DNA from: an uncultured Enterobacteriaceae bacterium
GTDB taxonomy: Bacteria; Pseudomonadota; Gammaproteobacteria; Eutrophobiales; Eutrophobiaceae
Direction of reading: 5' to 3'
NCBI GenBank assembly: GCA_964509455.1
Contig: CAZDXS010000245.1
Location: forward strand, 9,392-73,391
DNA: 64,000 bases
Position 1 is the stretch's first letter. Each line of letters opens with the position of its first letter. This document shows positions 4,237 through 60,746 of the stretch, in pieces. The notes under the pieces were generated by a model. That model was not told where the DNA came from. It searched no databases and saw nothing but the letters and a program-made list of their open reading frames with translations. The position numbers were made by a program, and so were the translations under genes.

Positions 4237-4635
4237 ATGGTAAAAGAAGTCTCGCCGCAACAGGCCTGGCAAATATTGCAAGAGGAGCCGGGGGCCGTGT
4301 TGCTGGACGTGCGCTCCCGGATGGAGTTTGACTACGTGGGACACCCTGTCGGCGCCGTCAACATTCCCTTGCAAGACCCGCCGGGCGCGGACAATGACCC
4401 GGCGTTCGCGGACAAGGCGGCGGCGCAACTGGGCGCGGCCGCCAAGACGACGCCGGTGCTGGCGCTGTGCCGCAGCGGGCAACGCTCCATGGCCGCGGCG
4501 CAACTGCTGGAGCAGGCCGGGTTCCAGCGCGTGGTGAACATAGCCCAGGGTTTCGAGGGGGACCGGGACGAGCGCGGACAGCGCGGGCATCTGGGCGGCT
4601 GGCGCTTTCACGGCCTGCCTTGGGAGCAGACCTGA
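4237..4635 (+). CDS. rhodanese-like sulfurtransferase domain protein
   Basis: 132 aa. It has the AVLLDVRSRMEFDYVGHPVGAVNIP and LCRSGQRS active-site-loop pattern of single-domain rhodaneses. Confidence 0.85.
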   Translation: MVKEVSPQQAWQILQEEPGAVLLDVRSRMEFDYVGHPVGAVNIPLQDPPGADNDPAFADKAAAQLGAAAKTTPVLALCRSGQRSMAAAQLLEQAGFQRVVNIAQGFEGDRDERGQRGHLGGWRFHGLPWEQT

Positions 4636-4664
4636 GCGCCGGGCAACCCGCTCCGCTCATTCAA

Positions 4665-4849
4665 GGCGCCGGTGCCGGCGCTGTGTCGCAGCGGGCAACG
4701 TGCCATGGCCGCGGCGCAACTGCTGGAGCAGGCCGGGTTCCAGCGCGTGGTGAACATAGCCCAGGGCTTCGATGGGGCGGGACGAACGCGCACAGCGCGA
4801 CCGTCTGGGCGGCCGGCGCTTTCACGGCCTACCCTGGGAGCAGACCTGA
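4665..4849 (+). pseudogene. duplicated, frameshifted 3' fragment of the rhodanese gene
   Basis: Nucleotides 4665-4880 repeat 4449-4664 at a 216-bp offset. The fragment translates LCRSGQRAMAAAQLLEQAGFQRVVNIAQGF and then loses frame. Track ORF 4672..5097 is this fragment. Confidence 0.8.
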
Positions 4850-4916
4850 GTGCCTGGCAACCCGCGCAACCAAGGCAACCCGAGCGTCCGTTCAACCACA
4901 GCGCCTGGCAGCCCGC

Positions 4917-6140
4917 TCAGCCGCGGCGTCCCGGGGCTCCGTACACCCGCCGACTCTCGAATACCCGGGCGCTGAAACGGCGGCCGCCGCTGTGCAACAG
5001 GCGGTTCAGCATGAAACTGAACAGAATGGGGTTGTGGGGGCGCACCCGGTCCAGCACCGCCGCCTCGGCGGCGGTAATCAGCCCTTTTCTTTTGTAGCGG
5101 TTCAGGGGAAACAGCGGGATGACCCCGGGCAGGGGGTAATCGGAGCCGTGTATCAACCGGTGACGCCAGTCCTCGGTCTCCAGCAGCGTCCGCACCACGG
5201 AACCGGGGCGGTTGAGCATGGTGACCGCCGAGATTTCGCCAAACAGTTTCCCCCGGTAGCGCTCCTCGTTCATCAGGCGCGCGAACAGGCTGAAGTTGCT
5301 GCGCCGCGGGCCGTTGGCGCCCTGGTCCAGGTCGCGCCCCTTGCCCAGGGAGGCGCAGTGCGCCACCACCACCGTAACGCCGTGGTCCAGGGGGCGGCGC
5401 AACAGCAGGGGGTTGCCGAAGTCCTGGCGCTCGCTGCCAAACACGGCTTTTTCATCACCGGCATGGGTCAGCAGGGGGATGTCGGCGGCGGCCATGGCCG
5501 CGTAAAACCCATCGCAACGGGGGGCGCCGGGGTCCATCCCCATGACCGGCGGCAACCATTTCACAGCGCGGGCGCCGCCTTCCACGGCGCGGGCCAGGGC
5601 TTCCTCGGCGTCTTCGCGGTACGGATGGATGGACGCCACCCACTCAAAATGCTCGGGATACTGCCGGTGCAACTGCGCGGCCAGCTCGTTGGGGACGTAA
5701 AATGCGCTGCGGTCCAAGCGGCGTTGTCCGGCCTCGTCGTAACTGTAGTCAAACGCCAGCAACATGAAGCGGCTCCCCTCGGGGAACGCCTGTTTCATGA
5801 CCAGCAACCGGTCCAGGAAACTCTGGTCAATGTTGCCTTCTACCGCGCAAGCGGCGTTCAGGTAGAACCGCACCAGCGCGTTTTGCACCGGGTGCTTGAA
5901 ACTGCGCCAGCGCGGGCTCAGCCAGATGCCGTTGCCGCTGTCGCCGGTGCCCAGCAGGTGCACGTGGCCGTCCCACACCAAGTCGGCGCGCAACCCGGTG
6001 AATGCATGGCGCACCAGCTCGTGGGCCGCCAGGTCGGCCGGCAGCTGCGGCGGCTCGCAGGGGTTGAACAGCCTGGGCCCTAAGCGGCAACCGGAGGCGC
6101 CCAGGGCGGCGGCCGCGGCCAGGAAGTTACGCCGGCGCAT
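4917..6140 (-). CDS. amidohydrolase-family protein with Tat/lipoprotein-type signal
   Basis: 407 aa. The N-terminus MRRRNFLAAAAALGASGC shows a twin-Arg motif plus a lipobox Cys. The HVHLLG and DYPLP motifs fit a metal-dependent hydrolase fold. Confidence 0.75.
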   Translation of the reverse strand: MRRRNFLAAAAALGASGCRLGPRLFNPCEPPQLPADLAAHELVRHAFTGLRADLVWDGHVHLLGTGDSGNGIWLSPRWRSFKHPVQNALVRFYLNAACAVEGNIDQSFLDRLLVMKQAFPEGSRFMLLAFDYSYDEAGQRRLDRSAFYVPNELAAQLHRQYPEHFEWVASIHPYREDAEEALARAVEGGARAVKWLPPVMGMDPGAPRCDGFYAAMAAADIPLLTHAGDEKAVFGSERQDFGNPLLLRRPLDHGVTVVVAHCASLGKGRDLDQGANGPRRSNFSLFARLMNEERYRGKLFGEISAVTMLNRPGSVVRTLLETEDWRHRLIHGSDYPLPGVIPLFPLNRYKRKGLITAAEAAVLDRVRPHNPILFSFMLNRLLHSGGRRFSARVFESRRVYGAPGRRG

Positions 6141-6172
6141 GGGCGCACGCGCGGCGGCGGCCCGAACCGTCT

Positions 6173-6325
6173 GGCGGCACCGGGTCTCGCGTTCTCAATA
6201 ATGTCACGGGTGAAGTCATGGGCAAAATCATCAGCAAGGTCACAGGAGGCGGTCCCCGGACGCCGTGGTCAGCATGGCGGCGCCGGGTCTCGCAGGCTCA
6301 ACAATGTCACGGGCGAAGTCATGGA
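6173..6325. repeat. two ~49-bp direct repeats 104 bp apart
   Basis: ggcggcaccgggtctcgcgttctcaataatgtcacgggtgaagtcatgg (6173-6221) recurs as ggcggcgccgggtctcgcaggctcaacaatgtcacgggcgaagtcatgg (6277-6325). Confidence 0.8.
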
Positions 6326-7115: not shown

Positions 7116-7119
7116 CAGG

Positions 7120-7500
7120 CGCCCTGCCCGTGGTTTGAGCGTGCCGCGGCGTCCTGCCCGTGGCTTGAGCGTGCAGAGGCGCCCCGGCCGGCCGCAGGAA
7201 ACGCCGCACCCCGGCGGCCGGGTTCCCAGAATGATTGACCGGCAGGTGCGGCGACCGGCCCGTGGTTTGAGTGCGCAGAGACGCCCTGCCCGTGGTTCGA
7301 ACGTGCGGCGGCACCCCGTCCGGCCGCAAGGAACGCACGGCGGCGGCCGGGTTCCCAGAAAGATTGACCGGCAAGCGCGGCGCCCTGCCCGTGGTTTGAG
7401 CGCACAGAAGCGCCGCGGCCGGCCGCGGGGGAACGCGCCCCCGCCAGCGACAACCGCCTGTTGCCGGGGCGAGCGGGGAAGACGCCTATCATGGGCGGGG
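7120..7500. repeat. ~129-bp tandem array (about 3 units) filling the tatB-tatC spacer
   Basis: ggcggccgggttcccagaatgattgaccggca at 7213 recurs at 7342 (offset 129). The sub-motif gccctgcccgtggtttgagcg occurs about 5 times. Confidence 0.85.
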
Positions 7501-10543: not shown

Positions 10544-13237
10544 TCAATGGGCCTCGTCCCAGTTGGCGCCGACGCCCACGTCCACGACCAGCGGCACGCT
10601 GAGTTCGGCCGCATCCTCCATCAGCCGGATGATTTCCCGGCGGCAGTCCTGGACCTGGGACTCCGCCGCCTCGAACACCAGCTCGTCGTGCACCTGCATG
10701 ATCATCTTGAGCTCGGCGCCGGCGCCCAGTAACTCCTGGTCAATGGCGGTCATGGCCCTCTTGATGATGTCGGCCGCAGTGCCCTGCAACGGCGCGTTGA
10801 TGGCGGTGCGCTCGGCGTAGCGGCGGCGGGCCGCGTTGCGGTCGCCGAGGCCGGGCAGGTACAGGCGGCGCTGGAACGCCGTTTCCACGTAGCCGTTTTC
10901 CCGGGCCTGCTCGCGCGTCGTGTCCATGTACCGCCGCACTCCGGGGTAGCGCTCGAAGTACTTTTCCACGTAGCGTTGCGCGGTGCCCCGGTCGGTATCC
11001 AGTTGCCGCGCCAGGCCAAACGCCGACATGCCGTACATCAGGCCGAAGTTGATGGCCTTGGCCGCCCGCCGTTGCTCGAAGCTGACCTCGTCGATGCCGC
11101 AGGAAAAGACCTCGGCCGCGGTGGCGCGGTGAATGTCTTGCCCCTGGGCGAACGCGGCCAGCAGGGTCTCATCGCCGGACAGGTGGGCCATGATGCGCAA
11201 CTCGATCTGGGAGTAATCGGCGGCCAACAACACGCTGCCGGCGGGCGCGATGAACGCTTGGCGGATTTTTCTGCCCTCCTCCGTGCGGATGGGAATGTTC
11301 TGCAGGTTGGGGTCCGACGAAGACAGGCGCCCGGTGGCGGCCACGGCTTGGTGATAAGAGGTGTGGACGCGCCCGTCGGCGGGGTTGACCTGCTCCGGCA
11401 GGCGGTCCGTGTACGTGGATTTCAGCTTGCTCAGCCCCCGGTGTTGCAGGATTAGCGCCGGCAGCTCGTGCTCGGCGGCCAGTTCCTGCAAGACGGACTC
11501 GGCGGTGGAGGGTTGCCCCTTGGGGGTTTTCTCGGTCACCGGCAGTTGCATTTTCTCGTACAGGATTTCCCGTATCTGCCCAGGGGAGCCGATGTTGAAA
11601 GCCGCCCCCGCCACACGGTGGGCCCGGCGCTCTGTCTCTCGCATCTGCTCCGCCAGCGCCGCGCTTTGCTTTTGCAACATGGCCGCGTCGATCATCACCC
11701 CGCGGCGCTCCATGCGGGCGAGGACGCTCAGCAGGGGGATCTCCAGTTCCGCATACAGCCGGCGCAACCCCTCCTGCTGACTCAACTGCGACCACAGCGC
11801 CTGGTGCAGTTGCAACGCGACGTTCGCGGCGGTGACCGCGTAGGCGGCGGCCTGCTCTATGGGGACCTGGTTGAAAGGAACCTGCCGGGCGCCCTTGCCG
11901 GCCACCTCCTCGTAACGGGCGACGGCCTGTCCCAGGTGGCGACTCGCCAGGCCGGCCAGGTCGTGACGCGAGCCGGCGCTGTCCAGCACGTAGGACTGCA
12001 ACATGACGTCATGGGCGATGCCGCCCAGGGCGACCCGGTGCCGCGCCAGCACGTTCAGGTCGTACTTCAGGTCGTGGCCGACTTTCGCGGGCTTTTCCGC
12101 TTCCAGCAGGGGGCGCAGCTTCTCCAGCGCCTTGCGCCGCGACAGCTGCCGCGGCGCGCCCTCGTAATCGTGGGCCAGGGGCAGGTATGCCGCCGCGCCC
12201 GGCGCCGCGGCGAACGACAGCCCCACCAGCTCGTCGCGCATGCAGTCCCGGGCGCTGGTTTCCGTGTGCAGGGCGAGCAACTCCGCCGCCGCCAGCCGGG
12301 GCAACCACTGCTCTAATTGCGCGGCGGTGTGAATGATCTCGCAACCGGGGGCGGCGCCGCTTTCTTCTGCGCGGCGCGGCGGCGGTGTCCCGTTGATTTC
12401 GGGCAACCAGCTGCGAAAGCCCCAGCGTTGGTAGTGGCGCTTCAGGGCCTCCTTGTCCTGCTCGGTGATCAGCAGTTGTTGCGGCGCCAGGGGCAGTTCC
12501 AGGTCCGTTTTCAGGGTCACCAGGCGGCGGCTCAGGGGGATCTGCTCCAGGTTTTCCCGCAACAGCTCGCCCACCCGGCCTTTGATCTCCGCGGCGGCGG
12601 CGACAATCGCATCCAGGCTGCCGTATTGTTGCAGCCACTTAGCCGCGGTCTTAGGGCCCACCTTGGGAATGCCTGGTACGTTGTCGGAACTGTCGCCCAC
12701 CAGCGCCAGGTAGTCGACCATGCGCTCCGGCGGCACGCCGAACTTGGCCGTCACGCCGTCGCGGTCGTAGCGGGTGTTGGTCATGGTGTTCACCAGGCGG
12801 ATGTTGTCATCGACTACCTGCGCCAAGTCCTTGTCGCCGGTGGAGATGAGGATTTTCAGCCCCTCCCGGGCGCCGGCCAGGGCCAGGGTGGCGATGACGT
12901 CATCCGCCTCCACGTTGTCGATGCACAACAACGGCACGCCCAGCGCCCGAATGATGTCGTGCAAGGGCGCTATCTGCACCGCCAGCTCGGGCGGCATCGG
13001 CGGGCGATGGGCCTTGTATTCCGGGTACAGTTCGTTGCGGAAACTCTTGCCGCTGGCGTCAAACACCACCGCGAAATAATCGGGCCGCTCCTCCCGCAAC
13101 AGTTTGCGCAACATGTTGACCACGCCGTAAATGGCGCTGGTGGGCTCGTCCTGCGAGGTGGTGAGGGACGGCATGGCGTAGTGCGCCCGAAACAAGTAAT
13201 AGGCGCCGTCCACCAGGACCAGTTGTTTTTGCGTCAT
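10544..13237 (-). CDS. polA: DNA polymerase I
   Basis: About 897 aa from ATG 13237 (MTQKQLVLVDGAYYLFRA). The 5'-3' exonuclease, 3'-5' exonuclease and Klenow polymerase motifs are present (ADYSQIELRIMAH, QVHDELVFE). Confidence 0.97.
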   Translation of the reverse strand: MTQKQLVLVDGAYYLFRAHYAMPSLTTSQDEPTSAIYGVVNMLRKLLREERPDYFAVVFDASGKSFRNELYPEYKAHRPPMPPELAVQIAPLHDIIRALGVPLLCIDNVEADDVIATLALAGAREGLKILISTGDKDLAQVVDDNIRLVNTMTNTRYDRDGVTAKFGVPPERMVDYLALVGDSSDNVPGIPKVGPKTAAKWLQQYGSLDAIVAAAAEIKGRVGELLRENLEQIPLSRRLVTLKTDLELPLAPQQLLITEQDKEALKRHYQRWGFRSWLPEINGTPPPRRAEESGAAPGCEIIHTAAQLEQWLPRLAAAELLALHTETSARDCMRDELVGLSFAAAPGAAAYLPLAHDYEGAPRQLSRRKALEKLRPLLEAEKPAKVGHDLKYDLNVLARHRVALGGIAHDVMLQSYVLDSAGSRHDLAGLASRHLGQAVARYEEVAGKGARQVPFNQVPIEQAAAYAVTAANVALQLHQALWSQLSQQEGLRRLYAELEIPLLSVLARMERRGVMIDAAMLQKQSAALAEQMRETERRAHRVAGAAFNIGSPGQIREILYEKMQLPVTEKTPKGQPSTAESVLQELAAEHELPALILQHRGLSKLKSTYTDRLPEQVNPADGRVHTSYHQAVAATGRLSSSDPNLQNIPIRTEEGRKIRQAFIAPAGSVLLAADYSQIELRIMAHLSGDETLLAAFAQGQDIHRATAAEVFSCGIDEVSFEQRRAAKAINFGLMYGMSAFGLARQLDTDRGTAQRYVEKYFERYPGVRRYMDTTREQARENGYVETAFQRRLYLPGLGDRNAARRRYAERTAINAPLQGTAADIIKRAMTAIDQELLGAGAELKMIMQVHDELVFEAAESQVQDCRREIIRLMEDAAELSVPLVVDVGVGANWDEAH

Positions 13238-13344
13238 TATGCGTTTGCGGCGTGGGGTCGTTGCCGCCCATTTTCCCATTTTTTGCTGTATTTTTCACTT
13301 GCCGGAGTATATCCTGTGGCGGCGATGCTGGAATATGAACCCTG

Positions 13345-15374: not shown

Positions 15375-15490
15375 GGGGACAGGAGCGGGCTCATGGACGC
15401 AGGGTCACAGGCGCAAGAGCAGGGTCGGGGGTGCAAGAACGGGGTCATGCAAAGCAGTATAACAGGGCTTGCCGGGTTTTTAGCGGCGGC

Positions 15491-16002
15491 GGCCGCCGCG
15501 CACCGGGAAACCGCGGCCTACGCCAGGGGCTTTCCACGACAGCGGCCGCCGCGCACCAAGAAAGCGCCGGCAGGCGCCCCGCACCGGGGAAACGCCGACG
15601 GGCGCCAAGGGTGTTCCGCAACTGCGGCCGCCGCACACCGGGAAAACGCCGGCAGGCGCCGGGGCCTTTCCGCGACAGCGGCCGCCGCGCCCCAAGAAAG
15701 CACCGGCAAGCGCCAGGGGCTTTCCGCAATCGCGGCCGCCGCGCACCGGAAAAACGCCGGCAAGCGCCGGGGCCTTTCCGCGACAGCGGCCGCCGCGCAC
15801 CGGGAAACCGCGGCCTACGCCAGGGGCTTTCCACGACAGCGGCCGCCGCGCACCGGGAAAGCGCCGGCAAGCACCGGGGGCTTTCCACAACCGCGGCCGC
15901 TACGCACCGGGGAAGCGCCGGCAGGCGCCAAGGGCTTTCCACGACAGCGGCCCCCGCACCGGGAAAACGCCGGCCTACGCCAGGATTTTTTCCACGGCGG
16001 CA
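15491..16002. repeat. tandem array, 9 units of ~54 bp (one 82-bp variant), ending in the ptsP stop region
   Basis: The unit is ggccgccgcgcaccgggaaaNcgccggcaNgcgccNgggNctttccNcgacagc. Units 1 and 6 are identical and carry ctacgccagg, which copies the ptsP stop plus its last codons (real copy ctacgccaggattttttccacggcggc at 15975). Confidence 0.9.
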
Positions 16003-22203: not shown

Positions 22204-22278
22204 CGCGCCGGCCCCGGGCTTTCAACAAGGCGCTGGGGCGGTTTTTGGGGCAGGTTGCCCGCGGCCCGGTTGCCGTCG

Positions 22279-25200
22279 TTACAGGTTGTCATTCATCCCC
22301 GACATTTTTGAGCGGATTTTCTGCGTCTCCACCGAGACGTGGATGACCTGGCGAAGCAGCCGTATCAACGCGGCCCGATGGTCTTGCCACTGGTAGGGGC
22401 ATTGCCGCAGCAGTTCCGTCACCTCGTCTGAATGATGTTTCCTCTCCTTCGGCCGCCCCTCATGCTGGTGCTCCGCCAGGGGCCAGAGCATGGCGGGGTC
22501 GCCCGACAACTGGTAGTCCCAGGCCGCTTGCGGAATGTTCCGAATCTCCGTTTTCGTATCGATGCGAATGATTTTTCCACCCGTCTTGCTGACGCCGACC
22601 CGGCAGATTTTCTCGGGCGGATCGGCGGCATGCCACCGCTTTGGTCCCACCACCTTGCAATGACGGTCCTCCGGACATTCATCGAAGCGGGTGTGCAACC
22701 GGGCCAGCGCTCTGCCCGCTTCCGCCCATTCCCGGAAACGGGGGTGCAAGGGCAACCGGGGCAGGGATACGCGCAGGTTCCCGGCGAAGCGCGTGGCGTA
22801 CTCCGGATCGTTCAGCACCGCGTACGCGTAATAAAAAATATCCTCCCGGGTGATGCGCTGTTGCTTATAGTGTGCGCGAAAGCGCTCTAAGGCGAGGTCC
22901 GTGATGTTCGAGCGCTTGTTGCCGTTCTCGTCATAGACGTAGAGAGGGATATATTGGGGGGAAGGCAACACTTCACCATCCGGCACTGTGTCGCTGAGCA
23001 AGGCATCAAACGGCTTCTTTTTACCGGGGGACGTAAAACCGATGACTAGGTTGTCGGAAGCTCCCCGTATACGGAGCGGAAAAATTTTTTTCAGCTGGTA
23101 AAGGCGATGAATAAGGCGGGGGCGATAATACAGTTGCTTGCGGGTGAACGGCCGCCACAGGACGGTGCGAATGGCCTGAGAATCGTAGGCAATTCCTCCA
23201 TCGTCCCCTGCCGCATACAACGCCAGTTCGGTGGTCCACTTGATATGCGGCTTGAAGAATTCTTTAATGAGCCTGTTACCGAAGCGGGTCAGGTCTTTGC
23301 GGTTTTCCGGCGTGTTCTGCAACGCCGGCGGCAACTCGTCACGGGAAGCATGGTATCGCCTGCGCTCCTCTTCATAAATGCTCACGAAACGCCGCACCTT
23401 GATTTCCAGCGCGGCGCGGCCCAGGTCCCACATCCAGTCATCTCGTCTTGTTGCGCTTCCCATGCTGTACAACGCAAATACGGGAATTTCTCCCACTTCT
23501 TGCCGGCCTTTCTCGTATTTCTGCTTGTATTCCTTGCTGACGGCGGGCATTGGCAACCTGTCAAAGCCCGTATCAGCCTGCGTTGGACACAGGGGGCCGC
23601 CCCCGTCCCGCTCAAGAGACGTCCAGCCAGGGGTGTTGTCCTTGTCATCCAACCACCTCAGCTTGGTCTCGGCGCTCTCTCCATGCAGGACGCAGTGGTA
23701 CATCACCCGGGCGTCGGTCCCGCCGGAGTCTTTCTTGATGGCGAATATCACCTGGCAACCAACCTTGTTGGGGAACACGTTCCCATCCGAAGCCCCTTCT
23801 CCTCCCAGATCAAGAATATACAGGGCAGTGCACTGCTCGCGCAGGTATTGCCGCAACGGCGCATCGGAAACGGAGTCCAGGAAACCGCGATTGGTAATCA
23901 GCGCAACCATTCCTTGCTCCCGGATCCTGTCCAAGGACCAGACAAGAAAACGCTTGTACTGGTCCGTGGAAGACGGCTTTTGCACCCCGCTGCCCCGGTA
24001 CATGTCCGTCAACCGGGCGTCCAGGGCCGGATAGCTGGCGTTCTCATTCATCTCCATTGCATTCTTCTGGGAGGCGCGCCAGGGCGGATTCCCGATGACC
24101 AGGGTGATGTCGGTGTCGCGCTGCTTGCGTACCCGCTTGGTGTTTTCTTTCGAGAACCCGCCGCCCTCCATCTCAACCTGTTCCCCTTCCCCGGTCAGGG
24201 GCAACGCCAGGGTGTCCTGGTAGCACAGGCCGGGAAACTGCTGGTCCGTCTCACCCCCCGTCAAGTTATACAACGTGCGCTGAACGGCCACGCAGGCGAC
24301 GTAGTACGCCAGGAGCGATACCTCGTTGGCCCACAAGGCGCCGCGCCCGTCCTTGCCTTGCCCGGCCGCCAGGTACTTGGCCTGCAGTTTTTTGCTCCCG
24401 CCCTTTTTTGCGGCAATATGCCGCATGACGGCCGTCACAAAAGTTCCCGTCCCCGTGGCCGGGTCCAGGATGGGAACCTGCGGCGATTCCAGCCCCTTGC
24501 CAAAATGCTCGCGCAGCAGCGAGTCCGAGGTGCGCACCATGAAGTTCACCACCTCCTGAGGGGTATAGACAATGCCCAGCTTATCGCCGGACTTCTTTGC
24601 ATAAGCCCAGTAGAACTGCTGATAGACGTCCTTCAGCAGTTGCTCCGCCTTGTCCGGATGTTTCTCGACGCTCTTGGCCAAATCATACAAGTCCGAGTAG
24701 TAAGCTTGCACTTTCTGGGTGAGGTTTCCCCACTCTCCTGGCCCTGCCAGCTGGTTCTGTAGAGAATCCAGCTCCTTGGCGATCGGGTTGGTTCGGTCCA
24801 TGTCCTGGCCGTACAGGGAGCGGAGAAACTCTCCAGTCAGCACGTGTTGGACCAACATTTCTGTTACTTCGCTCTCTCCTACTGCTCCCTTGCCGCCCAT
24901 CAACTGGGAAATTTCCGCGGCGGCCGTTTTTACCGCGGATTCTGATGCCTTTCGCAGGAATATACCGTTCAAGTTTGCGGCAATCCTTGGAATGTCTTCA
25001 CTCAACGTTGCCCATGCCTCCTTGAATTTCCTATCGATTTGCCCGGCGCGCGTGAAAAACTCCTCCAGTAGCTGAACGAAGCCTGCCGGCTCGCCAATCT
25101 CGGCTGTTTTCGGTTTTGGAGAATCCTTTCCGCCCCCAACGCTTCCCCCTTTTGGGGACTGATGCAAGCGAACCTCCGTGCCGGAATCTTCGAACAGCAT

Positions 25201-25638
25201 ATTGGACATTTCATACTCGTCCCTCTGCTTTTGCCTGACCTTATCCATAATCTTGCCGGGACAGCAGGCCTCCCACCAGCCGATCACCATTCCCAGGCCG
25301 CCCAGCGCCTTGACTTGCCCGTCAGGACGCTTGCCGGGCGACTGCTCCACCTCCTGAAAAAAACTGCACTTGTAGTGGGGAGCGAGCTCTATCATCAGTT
25401 GAGCAAATGCGTCCCGGCGGTCCACTTCCTTGGTCCTTCGGTCTTTCGTCAGCTCCAGCTGACGCTGGTAATAGGCCGCCAGGGCCGAGACAACAGTTTC
25501 GCGGTATTTACGGGTCTTGCCGCTGAGGCTGCCGCGCAAAGCAACCCGGAGCCTGGACTCCTCGTGATACCCGGCATTCTCGATTCTGGCAGCGACAGAA
25601 TCCAGGAGCCTGATAGTTTCTTTTTTTGTAGAACGCAT
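22279..25638 (-). CDS. large N6-adenine DNA methyltransferase-like protein, paralog A (PD-ExK-like N-terminus, gamma-class MTase, type ISP-like C-terminal specificity region)
   Basis: 1119 aa. Motif X GIVYTPQEVVNFMV, motif I ILDPATGTGTF and motif IV VIGNPPW are present. The C-terminus DIFYYAYAVLNDPEYATRFAGNLRVSLPRLPL...AGRALARLHTRFDE...VIHVSVETQKI resembles type ISP/IIG TRD-C regions. The N-terminus reads RPDG-x16-WWEAC. Confidence 0.85.
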   Translation of the reverse strand: MRSTKKETIRLLDSVAARIENAGYHEESRLRVALRGSLSGKTRKYRETVVSALAAYYQRQLELTKDRRTKEVDRRDAFAQLMIELAPHYKCSFFQEVEQSPGKRPDGQVKALGGLGMVIGWWEACCPGKIMDKVRQKQRDEYEMSNMLFEDSGTEVRLHQSPKGGSVGGGKDSPKPKTAEIGEPAGFVQLLEEFFTRAGQIDRKFKEAWATLSEDIPRIAANLNGIFLRKASESAVKTAAAEISQLMGGKGAVGESEVTEMLVQHVLTGEFLRSLYGQDMDRTNPIAKELDSLQNQLAGPGEWGNLTQKVQAYYSDLYDLAKSVEKHPDKAEQLLKDVYQQFYWAYAKKSGDKLGIVYTPQEVVNFMVRTSDSLLREHFGKGLESPQVPILDPATGTGTFVTAVMRHIAAKKGGSKKLQAKYLAAGQGKDGRGALWANEVSLLAYYVACVAVQRTLYNLTGGETDQQFPGLCYQDTLALPLTGEGEQVEMEGGGFSKENTKRVRKQRDTDITLVIGNPPWRASQKNAMEMNENASYPALDARLTDMYRGSGVQKPSSTDQYKRFLVWSLDRIREQGMVALITNRGFLDSVSDAPLRQYLREQCTALYILDLGGEGASDGNVFPNKVGCQVIFAIKKDSGGTDARVMYHCVLHGESAETKLRWLDDKDNTPGWTSLERDGGGPLCPTQADTGFDRLPMPAVSKEYKQKYEKGRQEVGEIPVFALYSMGSATRRDDWMWDLGRAALEIKVRRFVSIYEEERRRYHASRDELPPALQNTPENRKDLTRFGNRLIKEFFKPHIKWTTELALYAAGDDGGIAYDSQAIRTVLWRPFTRKQLYYRPRLIHRLYQLKKIFPLRIRGASDNLVIGFTSPGKKKPFDALLSDTVPDGEVLPSPQYIPLYVYDENGNKRSNITDLALERFRAHYKQQRITREDIFYYAYAVLNDPEYATRFAGNLRVSLPRLPLHPRFREWAEAGRALARLHTRFDECPEDRHCKVVGPKRWHAADPPEKICRVGVSKTGGKIIRIDTKTEIRNIPQAAWDYQLSGDPAMLWPLAEHQHEGRPKERKHHSDEVTELLRQCPYQWQDHRAALIRLLRQVIHVSVETQKIRSKMSGMNDNL

Positions 25639-25853
25639 AACTGGGCTGGCTGACGTAGAAAATCGCTAAGGGTTCACTGGCCGCAACGGCAGAAACGATG
25701 ATGTCTTTGGCGAGTGTATCACATCAGCCGCGACAACAACGGTGCGTGCCCGCGCCTGTTGGGGCAAAACCGGTTGCTTCATCCCTGGGAATCAATAAAG
25801 TCCGCTGGATCGGGGGTTTGGGCAGGTTGCCCGCGGCCCGGTTGTCGCCGCCG

Positions 25854-28800
25854 TTACAGGTTGTCATTCATGCCGGACATTTTTGAGCGGATTTTCTGCG
25901 TCTCCACCGAGACGTGGATGACCTGGCGAAGCAGCCGTATCAACGCGGCCCGATGGTCTTGCCACTGGTAGGGGCATTGCCGCAACAGTTCCGTCACCTC
26001 GGACGAGCGATGTTGCCGCGCTTTCGGGCGCCCCTCATGCTGGTGCTCCGCCAGCGGCCAGAGCATGGCGGGGCGACCCGCCAACTGGTAGTCCCAGGCC
26101 GCTTGCGGAATGTTCCGAATCTCCGTTTTCGTATCGATGCGAATGATTTTTCCGCCCGTCTTGCTGACGCCGACCCGGCAGATTTTCTCGGGCGGGTCGG
26201 CGGCATGCCACCGCTTTGGTCCCGCCACTTCGCAATGACGGTCCTCCGGACATTCATCGAAGCGGGTGTGCAACCGGGCCAGCGCTCTGCCCGCCTCCGC
26301 CCATTCCCGGAAACGGGGGTGCAAGGGCAACCGCGGCAGGGCAACGCGCAGGTCCCCGGCGAAGCGCGTTGCGTACTCCGGATCGTTCAGCACCGCATAC
26401 GCATAGTAGAAGACGTCCTCTTGGGTGATGCGCGGCCGCTGGTAGTGCGCGCGAAAGCGCTCCAAGGCGAGGTCCGTGATGTTCGAGCGCTTTTTGCCGT
26501 GCTCGTCATAGACGTAAAGAGGGATATATTGGGCGAAAGGCAGGAAATGATGGTCCGGCACCGCGTTGCTGAGCAATGCGCCAAACGACCTCTTTTTACC
26601 GGGGGACGTAAAACCAATGACCAGGTTGTCGGAACCCCCTTGCCTGTCGAACGGGAAGATGCTTCCCATCTGGTAGGGGCGGTGAAGCAAGACGGGCCGG
26701 TAATACAGTTGCTTGCGGGTGAACGGCCGCCACAGGGCGGTGCGAATCGCCCGGGAGTCGCAGGCAAGCGTCCCGTCCTCCCTTGTTGCGTACGGCGCCA
26801 GTTCGGTGGTCCACTTGATGCGCTGGTCGAAAAATTCTTTCATCAGCCGGTGGCCGAAGCGGGTCAGGCTTTTGCGATTTTCCGGCGTGTTTTGCAACGC
26901 CGGCGGCAACTCGTCATGGGAAGCATGGTATCGCCTGCGCTCCTCTTCATAAATGCTCACGAAGCGCCGCACCTTGATTTCCAGCGCGGCGCGGCCCAGG
27001 TCCCACATCCAGTCATCCCGGTTTGATTTGCTCCCCATGCTGTACGACGCAAACACGGGGACTTCTCCCGCCTCCTGCCGGCCCTGCTTGTATTCCTTGC
27101 TGACGGCGGGCATCGGCAACCTGTCAAAGCCCGTAGCGGCAGGGGTTGGACACAGGGGGCCGCCCCCGTCCTGTTCAAGAGACGTCCAGCCGGGGGTGTT
27201 TTTCCCGTTGTCCAACCACCTCAGCTTGGTCTCGGCGCTCTCTCCATGCAGGACGCGATGGTACATCGCCCGGGCGCCGGGTGCGCCGGAGTCTTTCTTG
27301 ATGGCGAAAATCACCTGGCAACCGGTCTTGTTGCCGGAGAACACGTTGCCGTCCGCAGACCCGTTCAACCCGTCGCCGCCCAGATCAAGAATATACAGGG
27401 CAGTGCACTGCTCGCGCAGGTATTGCCGCAACGGCGCATCGGAAACGGAGTCCAGGAAACCGCGGTTGGTGATCAGCGCGACCAGCCCCTGCTTCTGGAC
27501 CCGGTCCAGGGACCAAACAAGAAAACGCTTGTACTGGTCCGTGGAAGACGGCTTTTGCACCCCGCTGCCCTGGTACATGTCCGTCAACCGGGCGTCCAGG
27601 GCCGGATAGCTGGCGTTCTCATTCATCTCCATGGCATTCTTCTGGGAGGCGCGCCAGGGCGGATTCCCGATGACCAGAGTGATGTCGGTGTCGCGTTGCC
27701 GGCGCACCCGCTTGGTGTTCTCTTTTGAGAACCCGTTGCCTTCCAACTCAACCTGCTCCCCTTCCCCGGTCAGGGGCAACGCCAGGGTGTCCTGGTAACA
27801 CAGGCCGGGAAACTGCTGGTCCGTCTCGTACTCCCCGCCCTCCGTCAGGTTGTACAGGGTGCGCTGAACGGCCACGCAGGCGACGTAGTACGCCAGGAGC
27901 GACACCTCGTTGGCCCACAGGGCGCCGCGCCCGTCCTTGCCGTGCCCGGCCGCCAGGTACTTGGCCTGCAGTTTTTTGCTCCCGCCTCTTTTTGCGGCAA
28001 TATGCCGCATGACGGCCGTTACGAAAGTTCCCGTCCCCGCGGCCGGGTCCAGGATGGGAACCTGCGGCGATTCCAGCCCCTTGCCGAAATGCTCGCGCAA
28101 CAGCGAGTCCGAGGTGCGCACCATGAAGTTCACCACCTCCCGGGGGGTATAGACAATGCCCAGCCTGTCGCCGGACTTCCTGCCGTAAGCCCAGTAGAAC
28201 TGCTGATAGACGTCTTTCAGCAACTGCTCCGCCTGGTCCGGATAATCCTCGACGCTCCGCGCCAATCCTTGCAGGCCGGAGTAGTAGTCCCGCACTTTCC
28301 GGGTGAGGTTCCCCCACTCCCGCGGCCCCGCCAGCTGGTTCTGCAGGGCGTTCAACTCCCTGGCGATCGGGTTGGTGCGGTCGATGTCCTGGCCGTACAG
28401 GGAGCGGAGGAACTCCCCGGTCAGCACGTGCTGGACCAGCATGTCGGTCACTTCCTGTCCGCTCACGGCGCCCTCGCCGCCCATCAACCGGGAGATTTCC
28501 ACGGCGGCCGCCTGTACCGCGGCCGCCGCCTCTTGCTGTTGGAAGATGCTGTTCAGGCTTGCGGCGATTTCTGGTATTTCTTTTTCCAGCGCCGACCAGG
28601 CCTCCTTGAATTTCCTGTCGATTTGCCCGGCGCGGGTGAAGAAGCGATCCAGCAACCCGATGAACTGCGCCGGGTCGTCAATCCCGACGCGTTCTTGCTG
28701 CGGGGGCGCCGCGCCGTCCGCCTGGCACAGGCAGGCCTGCGTGCCGCAATCCTCGAACAGCATGTTGGACATTTCGTACTCGTCCGCCTGTTTTTGCCTG

Positions 28801-35965: not shown

Positions 35966-36256
35966 CAGTACGCGAACTCCGCCTTTCTGCTCAGCCGCTG
36001 GGCTTCCTGGGCGCAGGCGCCGTCACAAGCCGCGGCCGCCGGCAGGACCGGCGCCGGCCACAGGGCAAGTCGCAACAGACGCAAGCGCACCATCAGTACG
36101 CGAACTCCGCCTTTCTGCTCAGCCGCCGGGCTTCCTGGGCGCGGACGCCGTCACAAGCCGCGGCCGCCGGCAGGACCGCCGCCGGCCACAGGGCAAATCG
36201 CAACAGGCGCAAGCGAATCATCAGTACGCGAACTCCACCCTTCTGTTCAACCGCCA
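35873..36256. repeat. 128-bp tandem triplication of the pal-stop/cpoB-start junction
   Basis: ATG copies are at 35965 (real cpoB), 36093 and 36221. The boundary motif GGC(T/C)TCCTGG occurs at 35873, 36001, 36129 and 36257. Confidence 0.92.
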
Positions 36257-36754
36257 GGCCTCCTGGTCATGGCCGGCAACGGCGGGACGCTCCTCGCCGT
36301 AGCTCACGGTGATGAGTTGCGCCGGGTCAACGCCCAACACCACCAGTTGCTGTTTCACCGCACGCGCCCGTTGTTCGCCAAGGGCCAGGTTGTATTCCCG
36401 GGAACCGCGCTCATCGGCGTGCCCTTCCAGGGTCGCCTCGCGGCCCGGGTTGGCTTGCAAAAAACGGGCGTGGGCATGGATGAGCGCGTTGGAGTCCAGC
36501 GGCACGGCGCTGCTGTCGTAGTCAAAATAGATGACGCGCACCGGCGGCATGCTGGCCGGGTCGCCCAGCGGCGACATACCGCCGGCGCCGTCGTCTCCCA
36601 TTCCGAAAGCGCGGGCGCTTTCGTCCTCCCCTGCTGGTTGTTCCGCGCCGGCAGGGGCGCCGCCGCGCTCTTCGACGGGCACTTTCCTGGCGGATTCGGT
36701 GCAGGCGGTGAGCATCGCGCTCAGCAGGAGCGCCGATAAGATTTTACAGGTCAT
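36221..36754 (-). CDS. pal: peptidoglycan-associated lipoprotein Pal
   Basis: It has a lipobox (LSAMLTAC) and an OmpA-like domain (VIYFDYDSSAV...LEGHADERGSREYNLALGEQRA). Confidence 0.94.
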   Translation of the reverse strand: MTCKILSALLLSAMLTACTESARKVPVEERGGAPAGAEQPAGEDESARAFGMGDDGAGGMSPLGDPASMPPVRVIYFDYDSSAVPLDSNALIHAHARFLQANPGREATLEGHADERGSREYNLALGEQRARAVKQQLVVLGVDPAQLITVSYGEERPAVAGHDQEAWRLNRRVEFAY

Positions 36755-45813: not shown

Positions 45814-46419
45814 TCAGGCGACCGCCGCTTTCAGGGCGGCGCGGATCAAGTCCTCGCTGCTCATGCCCTCCCCCGCCGCACCGCGCACCAGGCGGCCGGC
45901 TTCCCTGGGGTTGTAGCCCAGGGCCACCAGGGCGGCGATGGCTTCGTTGACCGGCGCCGCTGCGCTCGTTGCGGGGGCGGCGCCCTTCCCGCCGGCGGCA
46001 GGCTCTGCCGCTGGGCGGTCTTTCAGGCGGTCGCTCATCTCCACGAGCAGGCGCTCCGCCATCTTCTTGCCGACGCCCGGCAGGCGGGTGAGACGCGCCG
46101 CGTTGCCGGTTTCTATGCATTGCACGAACTCGTCGGCGCCGATGCCGGACAGTATCGCCAGCGCTGTCTTGGCGCCTACGCCGCTGACCTTGATCAGGGC
46201 GCGAAACACGTAGCGCTCGTCCCCGGAGGCGAAACCGTACAGCAAGTGGGCGTCGTCCCGCACCACCAGGTGCGTCAACAGCTCAACCTCCTCGCCGGCG
46301 GGCGGCAGGACGTAAAACGTGTTCATGGACGCTTCCAGTTCGTACCCCACGCCTTGCACGTCCAGGGTCAGCGTCGGCGGTTGGCGGGCGATGATCCTGC
46401 CGCGCAGAAACCCGATCAT
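45814..46419 (-). CDS. ruvA: Holliday junction DNA helicase subunit RuvA
   Basis: 201 aa from MIGFLRGRIIARQPPTLTLDVQGVGYELEASMNTFY. The HhH motifs are LIKVSGVGAKTALAILS and LPGVGKKMAERL. Confidence 0.95.
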   Translation of the reverse strand: MIGFLRGRIIARQPPTLTLDVQGVGYELEASMNTFYVLPPAGEEVELLTHLVVRDDAHLLYGFASGDERYVFRALIKVSGVGAKTALAILSGIGADEFVQCIETGNAARLTRLPGVGKKMAERLLVEMSDRLKDRPAAEPAAGGKGAAPATSAAAPVNEAIAALVALGYNPREAGRLVRGAAGEGMSSEDLIRAALKAAVA

Positions 46420-46888
46420 GGCCGCAGCGCCGGGGTCTGCGGCTGGACGAGCGCCAGGGGGCGCCGCGAATGACCGCAGCGCAGGGCAACGTCCAGGGCC
46501 GGCGGCGGTTGGCGGGTGATGATCCTGCCGCGCAGAAACCCGATCATGGCCGCAACGCCGAGGTCTGCGGCCGGCCGGGCGCCGGGGGGCGCCGCGAATG
46601 ACCGCAACGCAGGGCAACGTCCAAGGCCGGCGTCGGCGGTTGGCGGGCGATGAGCCTGCCGCGCAGAAATCCGATCATGGTCGCGGCGCCGGGGTCTGCG
46701 GCTGGACGGGCGCCAGGGGGCGCCGCGAATGACCGCAATGCAGGGCAACGTCCAGGGTCAGCGTCGGCGGTTGGCGGGCGATGATCCTGCCGCGCAGGAA
46801 TCCGATCATGGTCGCCGCGCCAAGGTCTGCGGCTGGACGGGCGCCAGGGGGCGCCGCGAATGGCCGTGACACAGGGCAACGGCCAGGG
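46358..46888. repeat. tandem array, 4 units (128/131/131/131 bp), of the ruvC-stop/ruvA-start junction
   Basis: ATG copies are at 46419 (real ruvA), 46547, 46678 and 46809. Boundary motifs are ACGTCCAGGG (ruvA side, 46358) and ACGGCCAGGG (ruvC side, 46879). Confidence 0.92.
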
Positions 46889-47378
46889 CGTCGGCGGCAT
46901 CCTCCTGGGGCGGCTCCGCCAGGCACAGCAGGACCTTGACCATGTACTGCACCTGGGTTTTCTGCGCGTGTCCCTTGCCCACGGCAGCCTGCTTGACCTG
47001 GTTCGCCGTGTACTCAAAAACCGGCAGGCGCAGTTCGGCGCAGGCGGTGACGGCGGCGCCGCGGGCTTGCCCCAGCTTCAGCGCGGAATCGGCATTGCGG
47101 TACATGAATATTTTTTCGACGGCGGCCTCGGCCGGGCGGAATTCGCGTATTACTCCGGCAATTTCATGGAAAATTCGCCCTAGGCGCTCCGCCAGGGCTT
47201 CTCCTTGCACCGCGACGTGACCGTGGGTCACGTGCACGGCGTGATTGCCGGCAATGTCAATGACGCCGTACCCCGTTTGGCGAAAGCCCGGGTCAATCCC
47301 CAGGATGCGCACCACAGGCGCGGCGCCGGCCCGAGGCCGCGCCGGCGGCCGCTCAGTCCGGGCGGCGCCGGGCGTCAT
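46806..47378 (-). CDS. ruvC: crossover junction endodeoxyribonuclease RuvC
   Basis: RILGIDPGFRQTGYGVIDIAG...KIFMYRNADSALKLGQARG...DAADALAVALCHGH matches RuvC. The true start may be downstream of ATG 47378. Confidence 0.92.
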   Translation of the reverse strand: MTPGAARTERPPARPRAGAAPVVRILGIDPGFRQTGYGVIDIAGNHAVHVTHGHVAVQGEALAERLGRIFHEIAGVIREFRPAEAAVEKIFMYRNADSALKLGQARGAAVTACAELRLPVFEYTANQVKQAAVGKGHAQKTQVQYMVKVLLCLAEPPQEDAADALAVALCHGHSRRPLAPVQPQTLARRP

Positions 47379-49375: not shown

Positions 49376-49800
49376 CGCAACGTTGCGGGACAACCGCTCG
49401 CAGGAAGCCGCCCAACGTTTGCCCCGCCGCGGGGTCCGGCATAGTCGCGACAGGCGACGCGGAGCGGACGCTCGCAGGCGGCCGCGGCAACATCCGTCCC
49501 GCCGCGGGGCCCGACCTGGTCGCGACAGGCGACGCGGAGCGGACACCCGCAGGCGGCTACGGCAACATCCGTCCCGCCGCGGGGCCCGGCACGGTCGCGA
49601 CAAGCGACGCGGAGCGGACATCCGCAGGCGGCCGCAACTCCGTTTGCCCCGCCGCGGGGCCCGGCATCGTTACGGCGGGCGCCGTGGTCAGCGGGCAGGA
49701 GGCGGTCTGGGTCCTTGGGCAAAGCGATCACGTCCCGAATCCCCGCGGCGCCGGCCAGGATCATGGCGATGCGATCCAGGTCGAAAACAATGCCGGGGCG
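49376..49800. repeat. 75-bp tandem array (about 4 units) plus a ~125-bp pseudo-copy of an internal aspS 3' segment
   Basis: gcgacaggcgacgcggagcgg occurs at 49447, 49522 and 49597. gatcacgtcccgaatccccgcggcgccggccaggatcatg at 49726 copies aspS 49920 (offset 194). Confidence 0.88.
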
Positions 49801-58516: not shown

Positions 58517-58576
58517 TAATATCTCCTGCGTAACGCAATCCGGCTACTAATAAAAATGCCATCATAGCGGATTTTA

Positions 58577-59310
58577 TGCGGCGCAACAACAACTTTTTGC
58601 GGCGCATAAGCGAGTTGTCTGAAGACGGCGGGGAAACGACCCGCCGCGCCACCGGGGGAGTGCGGCGCAGAGGGCGCGGCGCACAGTGCGGGAAAGCGGC
58701 GCACGCCACGGGACAGAGGCGGCGCGGGAGTGCGGCGCGGCGGGAAGCGCGGCGCAAGGGGCGCGAGGCGGCATAACGCAAGGACACAGCAGAGCGCGGA
58801 GCGCACGGGACGCAGGCCGCGGCGCGGCGGGAAGCGCGGCGCATAAACGGGTTGCCTTATGACGGCGAGGAGGCGCCCAGTCGCGGCGCGGAGGCGCGAC
58901 GCAGGCCGCAGCGCGGCGCGGGAAGTGCGGAGCATACCATGGGGCGCGGGTGGAACATGCGCTACGCGGCGCTGGGAGCGGCGCAAGATGCGCGGAGAGC
59001 GCGAAGCGCACGGGACGCAGACCTCGGTGCGGCAGGGAAACGACCAGCCGCGGCACCGGGGGAGTGCGGCGCAGAGGCCGCGGCGCACAGTGCGGGAAGG
59101 CGGCGCACGCCACGGGACAGAGGCGGCGCGGGAGTGCGGCGCAGCGGGGGAAACGCGGCGCAAGAGGCGCGAGGCGGCATAGCGCAAGGGCAAAGCAGAG
59201 CGCGGAGCGCACGGGACGTAGGCCGCGGCGCGGCGGGAGGCGCGGTGCATAAACGGGTTGCCTTATGACGGCGAGGAGGCGCCCAGTCACGGCGCGGAGG
59301 CGCGGCGCAA
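58577..59310. repeat. complex GC-rich repeat region (~270-bp segment repeated at ~405-bp offset, plus shorter internal repeats)
   Basis: gcggcgcataaacgggttgccttatgacggcgaggaggcgcccagtc occurs at 58838 and 59243. ggaaacgacc...ccgggggagtgcggcgcagagg occurs at ~58630 and ~59036. Confidence 0.8.
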
Positions 59311-59316
59311 GCGGCG

Positions 59317-60321
59317 CTACTCGGCAAACTGGGGGATGATGCGCTCTGCGTACCCGGCAATAATCTCCTCCTCGTTGCCGTTGTCCAGGTAAATATTGAA
59401 CTGCGTCACACCCGCGTCACGCAACCGGCGCAACCGGGCGATGTGATCGGCGGGGTTGCCCAGCACGCAGAAGCCCTGGACAATGTCGTCGGTGATAAAA
59501 TCCAAAAACGGGTTGTCGGCGGCGCCGTGTTTCTTGTAGTCGTAACCGCGCCGCTTTGCGATGTACGCGGTCAGACTCCGGGGCGCCTTGTCCGTGTCCG
59601 CGCCGTATTTTTCCACGATGTCGGCAACATGGTTCCCCACCATGGCGGGAAACCACCGGACGGCCGCGATGCACTCGTCCATTGAGCCGAAATACGCCGG
59701 CGCCGCCGCCATTACCCGAAACGCCGCCGGGTCCCGCCCGGCGTCCCGGACCGCCGCATGGCACTGCTGGACGAACCAGCGCACCAGGGCCGGCTCGGCA
59801 ATCTGCAGTACCACCCCGTCGCCGCATTCACCCGCCACGGCCAGCGCTCGCGGCCCATAGGCGGCGATCCACACGGGCAACTCGTATCCCTCAGCCCAGC
59901 TGAATTGCACCGGCGCCGGGCAATCCGGGTACGTCGCTTCCTCGCCGCGCACCAGGGCTTTGACCGTGCGGGCAAACTCGGCAACGCGCGCCAGGGTCGC
60001 CGGTTTCCTGCCCATCACCCGCATGGAGCTGTCGCCCCTGCCCAGCCCCAGATCGAAGCGCCCGCCGCTTTGCCGGGCCAGGCTCGCAAACATGCTTGCC
60101 GCCACGGACCAGTCGCGCACGTTCGGGTTGGTAACGCAGGGGCCAAAACGCATGGTCGTCGTGTGCTCCATGCCCAGGGCGATGGCGGCGTAGCAGTCGC
60201 GCCAGAGGATGTGCGAGTCGTAGAACCAGCAGTAGGCGAACCCGCCGGTCTCCGCCTGGCGCACCAGGCGGCGCAACCGGCCGGGACTGACAACGCCCTT
60301 GAAGCAGACGCCGAACTCCAT
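59317..60321 (-). CDS. LLM-class (luciferase-like) flavin/F420-dependent oxidoreductase
   Basis: MEFGVCFKG...GGFAYCWFYDSHILWRD...FDLGLGRGDS matches the luciferase-like monooxygenase fold. The track start is GTG 60330. Confidence 0.82.
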   Translation of the reverse strand: MEFGVCFKGVVSPGRLRRLVRQAETGGFAYCWFYDSHILWRDCYAAIALGMEHTTTMRFGPCVTNPNVRDWSVAASMFASLARQSGGRFDLGLGRGDSSMRVMGRKPATLARVAEFARTVKALVRGEEATYPDCPAPVQFSWAEGYELPVWIAAYGPRALAVAGECGDGVVLQIAEPALVRWFVQQCHAAVRDAGRDPAAFRVMAAAPAYFGSMDECIAAVRWFPAMVGNHVADIVEKYGADTDKAPRSLTAYIAKRRGYDYKKHGAADNPFLDFITDDIVQGFCVLGNPADHIARLRRLRDAGVTQFNIYLDNGNEEEIIAGYAERIIPQFAE

Positions 60322-60746
60322 CCGGCTCACCCTCCCGGGGCGGCGCCCGGCGGCTCAACCGGCGCCGAACCTCCGGGTGAAACGAACGCCGAACTCACTG
60401 CGATCATTGTTGCGAATGGTACGCGCGAAAGGATTGCCAAAGGCGCCCGAGGCATCATCATACACCTTGTTGAACACATGCCCACCGCAACCAGCAACGC
60501 TCCAGGCGGCGCAACCGGCCGGGGCCAACAACGCCCTTGAAGCAGACGCCGAACTCCATCCGGCTCACCCTCCCGGGGCGGCGCCCGGCGGCTCAGCCGG
60601 CGCCGAACCTCCGGGTGAAACGAATGCCGAACTCACTGCGATCATTGTTGCGAATGGTAAGCGCGAAAGGGTTGCCAAAGGCGCCCGAGGCAGTATCATA
60701 CACCTTGTTGAACACATTCTCACCATAGACGGCAACGCTCCAGGCG
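60271..60746. repeat. 238-bp tandem duplication (2 units) of the TonB-receptor-stop/LLM-start boundary
   Basis: CCAGGCG occurs at 60264, 60502 and 60740. The pseudo-stop at 60355 corresponds to the real stop at 60593, and the real ATG at 60321 to the pseudo-ATG at 60559. Confidence 0.93.

Follow-up and report, generated by a model that had tools for sequence, protein, structure and literature searches.

Tandem duplications across bacteria are reported to come chiefly from microhomology-mediated tandem duplication, a process to which long G+C-rich arms are far more prone and which has been tied to Okazaki-fragment maturation (bioRxiv 10.64898/2026.02.28.708716); in E. coli, DNA polymerase I (Pol I) and lagging-strand processing act in duplications with microhomology junctions (PMC1428787). 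Small tandem units between genes are also known from MIRU-VNTR (variable-number tandem repeat) loci, for which a −4 coupling has been described (PMC12548453). Here we analyze one 64-kb stretch, referred to as the window, of a single metagenome-assembled contig (CAZDXS010000245.1) from an uncultured Enterobacteriaceae bacterium, which carries 13 small tandem arrays, most of them made of the ends of the genes next to which they lie. With a probability of about 75%, we consider these to be real, locus-specific duplications that arose by microhomology-mediated tandem duplication, their placement at gene ends being the work of a selection filter.

Repeats were called across the window with Tandem Repeats Finder and self-BLASTN, and gene identities were assigned with NCBIfam and Pfam (Table 1). 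The window has a G+C content of 66%, and the majority of its genes lie on the minus strand. An earlier note on this DNA, made from the sequence alone, had listed tandem copies at ten or more loci; both methods recovered all ten listed loci in the positions given, together with three further arrays (6172-6324, 58626-59309, and 35103-35566). Every repeat is direct and head-to-tail, and self-BLASTN detected no inverted self-match in the window. Eight of the 13 small arrays include the start or stop of a coding sequence (CDS), four are purely intergenic (6172-6324, 7118-7426, 49395-49667, and 58626-59309), and one is an in-frame coding repeat, so that the description of the units as taken from gene boundaries holds for the first group and not for the other two. 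Copies within arrays are 78 to 94% identical, and the divergence of 6 to 22% includes substitutions and a 3-bp indel in the third ruvC/ruvA copy, as the note had described. Four unit sizes fall at 128 to 137 bp. No gene is interrupted by an array, each flanking gene retains one complete copy, and the biosynthetic operons in the window are complete; on the curated gene map, coding density is 85%, or 89% once the arrays are removed.

Table 1. Tandem arrays, gene duplicates, and other features of the 64-kb window.
Feature	Coordinates	Strand	Unit and copies	Copy identity or remark
Rhodanese 3' end duplication	4451-4651 / 4667-4865	+	216 bp x2 (offset 216)	91%
Intergenic direct repeat	6172..6324	-	50 bp, offset 103	88%
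tatC	6348-7115			
141-aa ORF in tatB-tatC spacer	7115-7540			no family match
tatB-tatC spacer array	7118..7426	-	132 bp x2.2-2.4, 30-bp sub-repeat	82%
tatB	7512-7778			88 aa (region 7116-7778, -)
polA (DNA polymerase I)	10544..13279	-		3'-5' exonuclease site degenerate; other domains intact
ptsI/ptsP-like 3' end array	15482..15984	-	54 bp x~9	~80%
Type IIG/ISP-like gene pair	22248-25638 / 25820-29201 (region 22248..29222)	-	3.57 kb	83-87%
Paralog genes of the pair	22279-25638 and 25854-29222	-		~1120 aa
HAD-family hydrolase gene	29269-29850	-		
murU/queC convergent 3' ends	32942..33215	.	137 bp x2	89%
CpoB linker repeat	35103..35566	-	in-frame 42-bp x11 (14 aa x11)	
pal/cpoB junction array	35868..36266	-	128 bp x3.1	91%
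pal/cpoB mini-ORFs	36093-36221 and 35965-36093			42 aa
TolA-like protein repeats	38491-38684	-	21-bp coding repeats	
Giant Ca-binding repeat gene	41555-45361	-		1268 aa; flanks 41236-41554 and 45362-45813
Giant-gene 5' end duplication	45321-45430 / 45495-45604	-	offset 174	86%
ruvC/ruvA junction array	46358..46889	-	x4.1, units 131, 131, 128, 131 bp	88-92%
ruvC/ruvA mini-ORFs	46675-46809, 46544-46678, and 46416-46547			43-44 aa
Array downstream of aspS	49395..49667	-	75 bp x3.3	85%
aspS 3' end duplication	49678-49795 / 49873-49989	-	offset 195	91%
Long ORF containing the tRNA gene	52462-53697			cytochrome b561 domain, residues 237-406
tRNA gene	53043-53115	-		Rfam, 75 bits
LLM-SDR spacer repeat	58626..59309	-	404 bp x1.7 (offset 404)	93.6%
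TonB-dependent receptor (TBDR)/LLM duplication	60260..60746	-	238 bp x2	93%

The units are far from randomly placed with respect to genes. On the curated map, with a coding fraction of 0.89 after removal of array DNA, a randomly placed unit of the observed size would fall wholly inside one CDS with a probability of 0.55 to 0.85, and the probability of finding no more than one of the 13 units wholly within a CDS is 3e-7; the enrichment at CDS boundaries that the note had put forward is therefore borne out in this window. The sole small array lying entirely within a CDS is the cpoB linker repeat, whose unit is an exact multiple of three. This enrichment is best read as survivorship under purifying selection, with no boundary-seeking mechanism needed: when the duplicated unit reaches across the end of a gene, every gene still has an intact copy, whereas a duplication inside a gene disrupts it, so purifying selection alone yields the pattern. 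The decay of pseudo-copies past stop codons, described below, fits this survivorship view.

Short homologies mark the three best-preserved arrays (ruvC/ruvA, pal/cpoB, and TBDR/LLM), in which self-alignments extend 10 to 11 nucleotides (nt) past a whole number of units. Microhomology arms of 9 to 12 nt, with at most one mismatch, are common to the flank and the unit end, reading ACGTCCAGGG at ruvC/ruvA, GGCyTCCTGG at pal/cpoB, and CCAGGCG(g/c)CG at TBDR/LLM. Such arms are what microhomology-mediated tandem duplication, a known and universal process, characteristically leaves. A CCWGG motif (Dcm/Vsr-type site) occurs within three of the readable junction microhomologies (46348-46357, 60498-60508, and 35873-35886), a marginal excess, since some 4.7% of the window's 10-mers carry one.

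The abundance of arrays sets this DNA apart from its relatives. We counted 15 near-tandem loci in the window, compared with 18 in 1,046 kb of other genomes (1.1 per 64 kb, or 0.75 per 64 kb for loci of at least 60% G+C) and none in ca. 91 kb of the closest relatives (AspS identity of 78 to 80%). The excess is about 15-fold and lineage-specific. These relatives are distant, the best AspS match among 5.8 billion proteins having 80% identity and the best PolA match 71%. Syntenic relatives share the order aspS..yebC-ruvC-ruvA..tolB-pal-cpoB-queC/murU with zero to one near-tandem repeat per 21 kb, and in the closest ones ruvC and ruvA overlap by 4 nt (ATGA) in a single copy. At the orthologous loci, then, arrays are absent and junctions single-copy, as one of the note's alternatives had it, and the single-copy segment would appear to be ancestral, judging from syntenic relatives with at most 80% AspS identity. 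Combined with the imperfect microhomology of the cleanest junctions, this agrees with the proposal of a lineage-specific microhomology-mediated duplication process. The array-junction pattern was absent from JGI metagenome contigs.

Units from different loci shared only 9- to 14-nt chance words when all were compared against all, and none recurred elsewhere in the window. Since the loci have no sequence in common, the units are local duplications and not copies of REP, MITE, or MIRU elements, in line with the note's statement that they are not generic REP- or MITE-like elements; the absence of inverted repeats agrees with this. A dispersed repeat family was rejected because only chance words are shared between loci, and a REP/BIME or MITE origin because inverted self-matches were lacking, the units were locus-specific, their folds equaled those of shuffled sequences, and Rfam gave no match. 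No Rfam family was found in the arrays, the only match in the window being a tRNA gene. The RNAs of the ptsP-like and aspS units folded no better than shuffled sequence (z of −1.0 to +0.3), and a terminator scan found weak hairpins in two of the nine ptsP-like units and none at aspS, which leaves a structured RNA or terminator function unsupported.

At gene 3' ends, the rhodanese unit consists of the last ca. 60 codons, the stop, and 16 nt, and the downstream copy is a frameshifted, decayed pseudo-fragment; the aspS duplication also covers the 3' end and stop, with a frameshifted downstream copy (49678-49795). The 75-bp array beyond it is intergenic, 3' of aspS and 5' of the nadA promoter. The ptsP-like unit comprises the last eight codons and the stop, which three units retain as TAG, along with a weak hairpin that has a T-run. 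The tails of murU (plus strand) and queC (minus strand) overlap, and the first copy of the unit completes murU while the second completes queC. In the TBDR/LLM duplication, the unit holds the last ca. 60 codons of the TonB-dependent receptor and the first 19 of LLM, separated by 33 nt that include a Shine-Dalgarno site; the resulting chimeric open reading frame (ORF) is out of frame. One duplication involves a 5' end: its unit contains the promoter, 5' untranslated region, Shine-Dalgarno site, and first codons of a giant gene for a 1268-amino-acid (aa) Ca-binding repeat protein, with a sigma-70-like promoter match in each copy (11/12 and 10/12).

Among the spacer arrays, the 50-bp repeat separates the tatC stop (6348) from an amidohydrolase gene that starts at 6140, and the 404-bp repeat occupies a spacer of about 800 bp from the stop of the LLM oxidoreductase gene to the start of an SDR gene. 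A further array, reported in the note as ca. three copies of 129 bp at tatB/tatC, is indeed present in the 396-bp spacer between these genes, but it measures 132 bp in 2.2 to 2.4 copies and its units have no start or stop codon; it abuts the tatC ATG, its end falling at the TGATG in which tatC starts. TatB is unusually short at 88 aa, and the repeat-filled spacer is a single open frame, a 141-aa ORF perhaps left over from a TatB tail that was once longer. CpoB, in turn, is a 437-aa protein with a lineage-specific linker repeat (14 aa in 11 copies), and a TolA-like protein has 21-bp coding repeats; both sets of in-frame repeats fit the same duplication-prone background.

Two arrays copy overlapping gene junctions. 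Each ruvC/ruvA unit, read on the coding strand, contains the last 24 ruvC codons, the ATGA stop/start overlap, and the first 20 ruvA codons, while each pal/cpoB unit contains the last 11 pal codons, the TGATG overlap, and the 31-codon CpoB signal peptide. The unit lengths at both junctions (131/128 and 128 bp) are all 2 mod 3, and five chimeric mini-ORFs are open. Three of them are chained at ruvC/ruvA, each fusing the first 20 or 21 RuvA residues to the last ca. 23 RuvC residues and having a stop that overlaps the next ATG; the other two, at pal/cpoB, consist of the CpoB signal peptide followed by the 11 C-terminal Pal residues and are joined to their neighbors by TGATG. The 3-bp indel mentioned above is the only one in these two arrays, and frameshifts are confined to the pseudo-copies at 3' ends, a contrast that is not significant (ca. 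p = 0.1). Among ruvC/ruvA copies, the ratio of nonsynonymous to synonymous change (pN/pS, taken as dN/dS) is about 1 for the RuvC tail and 0.5 for the RuvA head, with two to eight changes per comparison. In-frame relay mini-ORFs thus happen to form at overlapping operon junctions, with the stop/start overlaps kept, and the signs of selection on this in-frame property are only suggestive. Because the units reproduce the overlaps and have lengths of 2 mod 3, translation, and with it the coupling at ruvC/ruvA and pal/cpoB, would be relayed rather than broken. This contradicts the alternative offered in the note, selection for spacing and decoupling of overlapping genes, which is further at odds with the arrays at lone 3' ends, the convergent pair, the promoter, and plain spacers, where decoupling is irrelevant.

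The window also contains polA, with a degenerate site for proofreading. Relative to E. coli numbering, Pol I carries the substitutions D355H, N420D, D501A, and D503N and retains E357, D424, and Y497; D355, E357, D424, Y497, and D501 are kept in 119 of the 119 other closest homologs, D355H and D501A being unique to this genome among the 120. Near-invariant columns are changed at 13 of 76 positions in the exonuclease domain (17%), against 5 of 113 in the 5'-nuclease domain and 6 of 184 in the well-conserved polymerase domain (3.7% for these two; Fisher p = 1.5e-4). The same comparison for AspS gave 24 of 382 (6.3%), also below the exonuclease domain (p = 0.004). From these residues, Pol I proofreading has almost certainly been lost, and in this lineage alone. 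A defective 5' flap nuclease was considered and rejected, its acidic residues all being conserved with respect to the Taq and M. smegmatis Pol I enzymes.

An exonuclease-deficient Pol gamma, a family-A enzyme, overruns the downstream 5' end and creates unligatable flaps (PMC4557304), and an exonuclease-deficient Pol delta strand-displaces freely (PMC4417170); Rad27/FEN1, for its part, prevents sequence duplications (PMC4608483). These observations, together with the preprint on Okazaki-fragment maturation and the role of Pol I in E. coli cited above, make a link between Pol I and duplication plausible. A proofreading-dead Pol I might raise the duplication rate via faulty Okazaki-fragment maturation, a tentative and rather doubtful proposal drawn from one genome. 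Alternatively, the cause may be weak selection, or other exonucleases or mismatch repair may have been lost elsewhere in the genome. A stronger form of the proposal, which we think unlikely, would have the lineage be a natural tandem-duplication mutator in which Pol I flaps re-anneal at microhomologies and duplicate 50 to 400 bp, the survivors at overlapping operon junctions being only those with a length that holds the chimeric mini-ORF in frame and so relays translational coupling.

We infer the following course of events. Direct repeats that are short, imperfect, and G+C-rich, lying 50 to 400 bp apart, would be the sites of replication slippage or template switching and give rise to tandem duplications, which would arise or persist some 15 times more often in this lineage than in its relatives. 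Purifying selection would then spare the units that span a stop, a start, or a junction, those that are intergenic, and those that are in-frame multiples of three. Some arrays would go on to gain copies (up to 4, 9, and 11), the copies would drift to 78 to 94% identity, and pseudo-copies past a stop codon would decay by frameshift.

Several points weigh against this account. The density is that of this window, and a higher duplication rate is indistinguishable from weaker removal by drift. With only distant relatives for comparison, the gains are neither polarized at the species level nor dated. The arms are clear at three junctions only, the older junctions being weak or decayed past reading, and no array in the window has copies more than 94% identical, which is surprising if the process still continues, unless very similar copies fail to assemble. 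(Candidate causes of the lack of such copies and of the clustering of unit sizes are a burst of duplication long ago, a limit of assembly on very similar repeats, or a favored length scale.) As for Pol I, the link is a single-genome correlation, and the activity with the most direct tie to duplications, that of the 5' flap nuclease, seems to be intact. Moreover, many bacteria naturally lack Pol I proofreading, and we know of no report of a tandem-repeat excess in them.

One rival explanation is drift. If selection were weak, as in a small effective population, slightly harmful duplications could persist with no rise in their rate, and the decay of Pol I would be another symptom; the age of the copies (78 to 94% identity) speaks for such long persistence, as do the 6.3% of near-invariant AspS columns that are changed and the short TatB. 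Yet coding density is normal, no gene in the window is disrupted, the decay of Pol I is specific to its exonuclease domain, and a genome of 66% G+C with complete biosynthetic operons is unlike typical reduced, drift-dominated ones, so that we regard this explanation as possible but doubtful. Another view is that the arrays are kept because they are useful, as relay mini-ORFs, multiplied terminators (ptsP-like and aspS), a doubled giant-gene promoter, or decoupling spacers. The junction units of 2 mod 3 with five open mini-ORFs and preserved ATGA/TGATG overlaps, the restriction of frameshifts to 3'-end pseudo-copies with a sole 3-bp indel in the junction arrays, the strong sigma-70-like promoter in both giant-gene copies, and the terminator-like hairpins in some ptsP-like units are what this view would lead one to find. 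Nevertheless, the prior for an in-frame unit is one-third per founding event, for a joint chance of about 1/9 to 1/27, the frameshift contrast falls short of significance, the dN/dS values for ruvC/ruvA rest on tiny counts, and the unit RNAs fold like shuffles. Locations as different as 3' ends, a convergent pair, a promoter, and plain spacers have no one function that would suit them all, and the relatives thrive with single-copy junctions; we find usefulness improbable as the general explanation.

Two further explanations were considered. An assembly artifact, by assembler stutter or by strain variants joined in tandem, has to be kept in mind for one 82,753-bp metagenome contig known from a single assembly, with no instance of the junction pattern among JGI metagenome contigs, but copies that differ by 6 to 22% through substitutions and a 3-bp indel are not what it would leave. 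Nor would it spare every gene (P = 3e-7), place microhomology at the junctions, or make pseudo-copies decay as biology predicts, and two strain variants could not give arrays of 9 and 11 diverged units; an artifact is therefore very improbable. The insertion at gene ends of a dispersed mobile family (REP/BIME, MITE, or MIRU-like) is suggested by the likeness of several unit sizes (128 to 137 bp) and by the inter-cistron position, which resembles that of MIRUs (PMC12548453). It is already refuted within the window, and we give it almost no credence, given that the loci share only chance matches of 9 to 14 nt, that each unit is composed of the neighboring genes' own conserved coding sequence, and that the arrays have neither inverted repeats nor Rfam matches. 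Duplication by microhomology, filtered by selection, is the explanation we retain.

The largest repeat in the window is probably of another kind. The 3.57-kb type IIG/ISP-like pair consists of two paralog genes encoding products of ca. 1120 aa with coupler, N6-methyltransferase, and Type_ISP_C specificity domains, in neither of which a nuclease or helicase domain was detected, and it is inserted between lptC and the gene for a HAD-family hydrolase. The earlier note had assigned it to the same pattern as the small arrays, but it is made up of whole-gene paralogs separated by a non-homologous 180-bp spacer and has no clean junction, which leaves it untied to the small-unit process; it is a whole-gene duplication that probably falls outside that process. 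The paralogs may be a pair with diverging specificity.

The giant gene lies between ruvA and ruvB, which are adjacent to each other in the closest relatives. Its product has dozens of DxDxDG/EF-hand-like Ca-binding loops and a weak match to lanmodulin (E = 1e-8), the gene has 81-bp coding repeats, and the spacer upstream of it is relatively A+T-rich (56% G+C). Elsewhere in the window, the tRNA gene falls within a long ORF of which only the C-terminal part, with the cytochrome b561 domain, is likely to be a real gene.

Most tandem repeats are now attributed to seeding by microhomology-mediated tandem duplication, and we know of no description of natural lineages in which it runs high. The genome studied here is a natural record of the duplications that selection tolerates, namely, those bracketing gene ends, and it shows how inter-cistron relay ORFs and VNTR-like arrays can arise from neighboring genes. 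The decayed proofreading site of Pol I gives a concrete genetic candidate for the cause. Were the link to Pol I true, the eukaryotic connection between Okazaki-fragment maturation and duplication (Rad27 and the Pol delta exonuclease) would extend to bacteria, and if the lineage were a mutator, MIRU-like inter-cistron elements and new small ORFs would be born directly from gene ends; should the Pol I link fail, this would be an unusually repeat-rich but mechanistically ordinary genome.

Among described systems, yeast rad27 (FEN1) mutants are duplication mutators, with tandem duplications bordered by short direct repeats, and Rad27 acts to prevent duplication as stated above; here, by contrast, the loss concerns the proofreading site alone, the flap nuclease domain seems to be intact, and the link is a correlation seen in one genome. 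A parallel is offered by exonuclease-deficient forms of Pol delta and Pol gamma, with their excess strand displacement and unligatable flaps (PMC4417170 and PMC4557304), and Pol I, like Pol gamma, is a family-A enzyme, one that matures Okazaki fragments. The predicted defect itself resembles that of proofreading-deficient Pol I enzymes such as Taq and Bst, with loss of 3'-5' exonuclease carboxylate metal ligands (D355 and D501, of the set D355, E357, D424, and D501). MIRU-VNTR loci share with these arrays tandem units of ca. 50 to 130 bp between co-oriented genes and a small ORF overlapping the start and stop of its neighbors by −4 or −1 nt, an overlap found here at ruvC/ruvA and pal/cpoB only; the MIRUs, however, form a single dispersed family that shares a consensus and is apparently mobile, whereas here the units are the flanking genes' own ends, with nothing common across loci. 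The closest likeness is to microhomology-mediated tandem duplications (bioRxiv 10.64898/2026.02.28.708716; PMC1428787), in the head-to-tail copies of single-copy local sequence, the G+C-rich arms, the later expansion, and the link to lagging-strand and Okazaki-fragment processing. The differences are a density about 15 times that of relatives, copies that are old and diverged instead of segregating variants, units of 50 to 400 bp, survivors that sit almost all on gene ends of housekeeping operons, and a co-occurring proofreading-dead Pol I. The mechanism is thus of a known kind; what is new is its density in housekeeping operons, the chains of relay mini-ORFs made from the genes' own ends, and the proofreading-dead Pol I that accompanies them.

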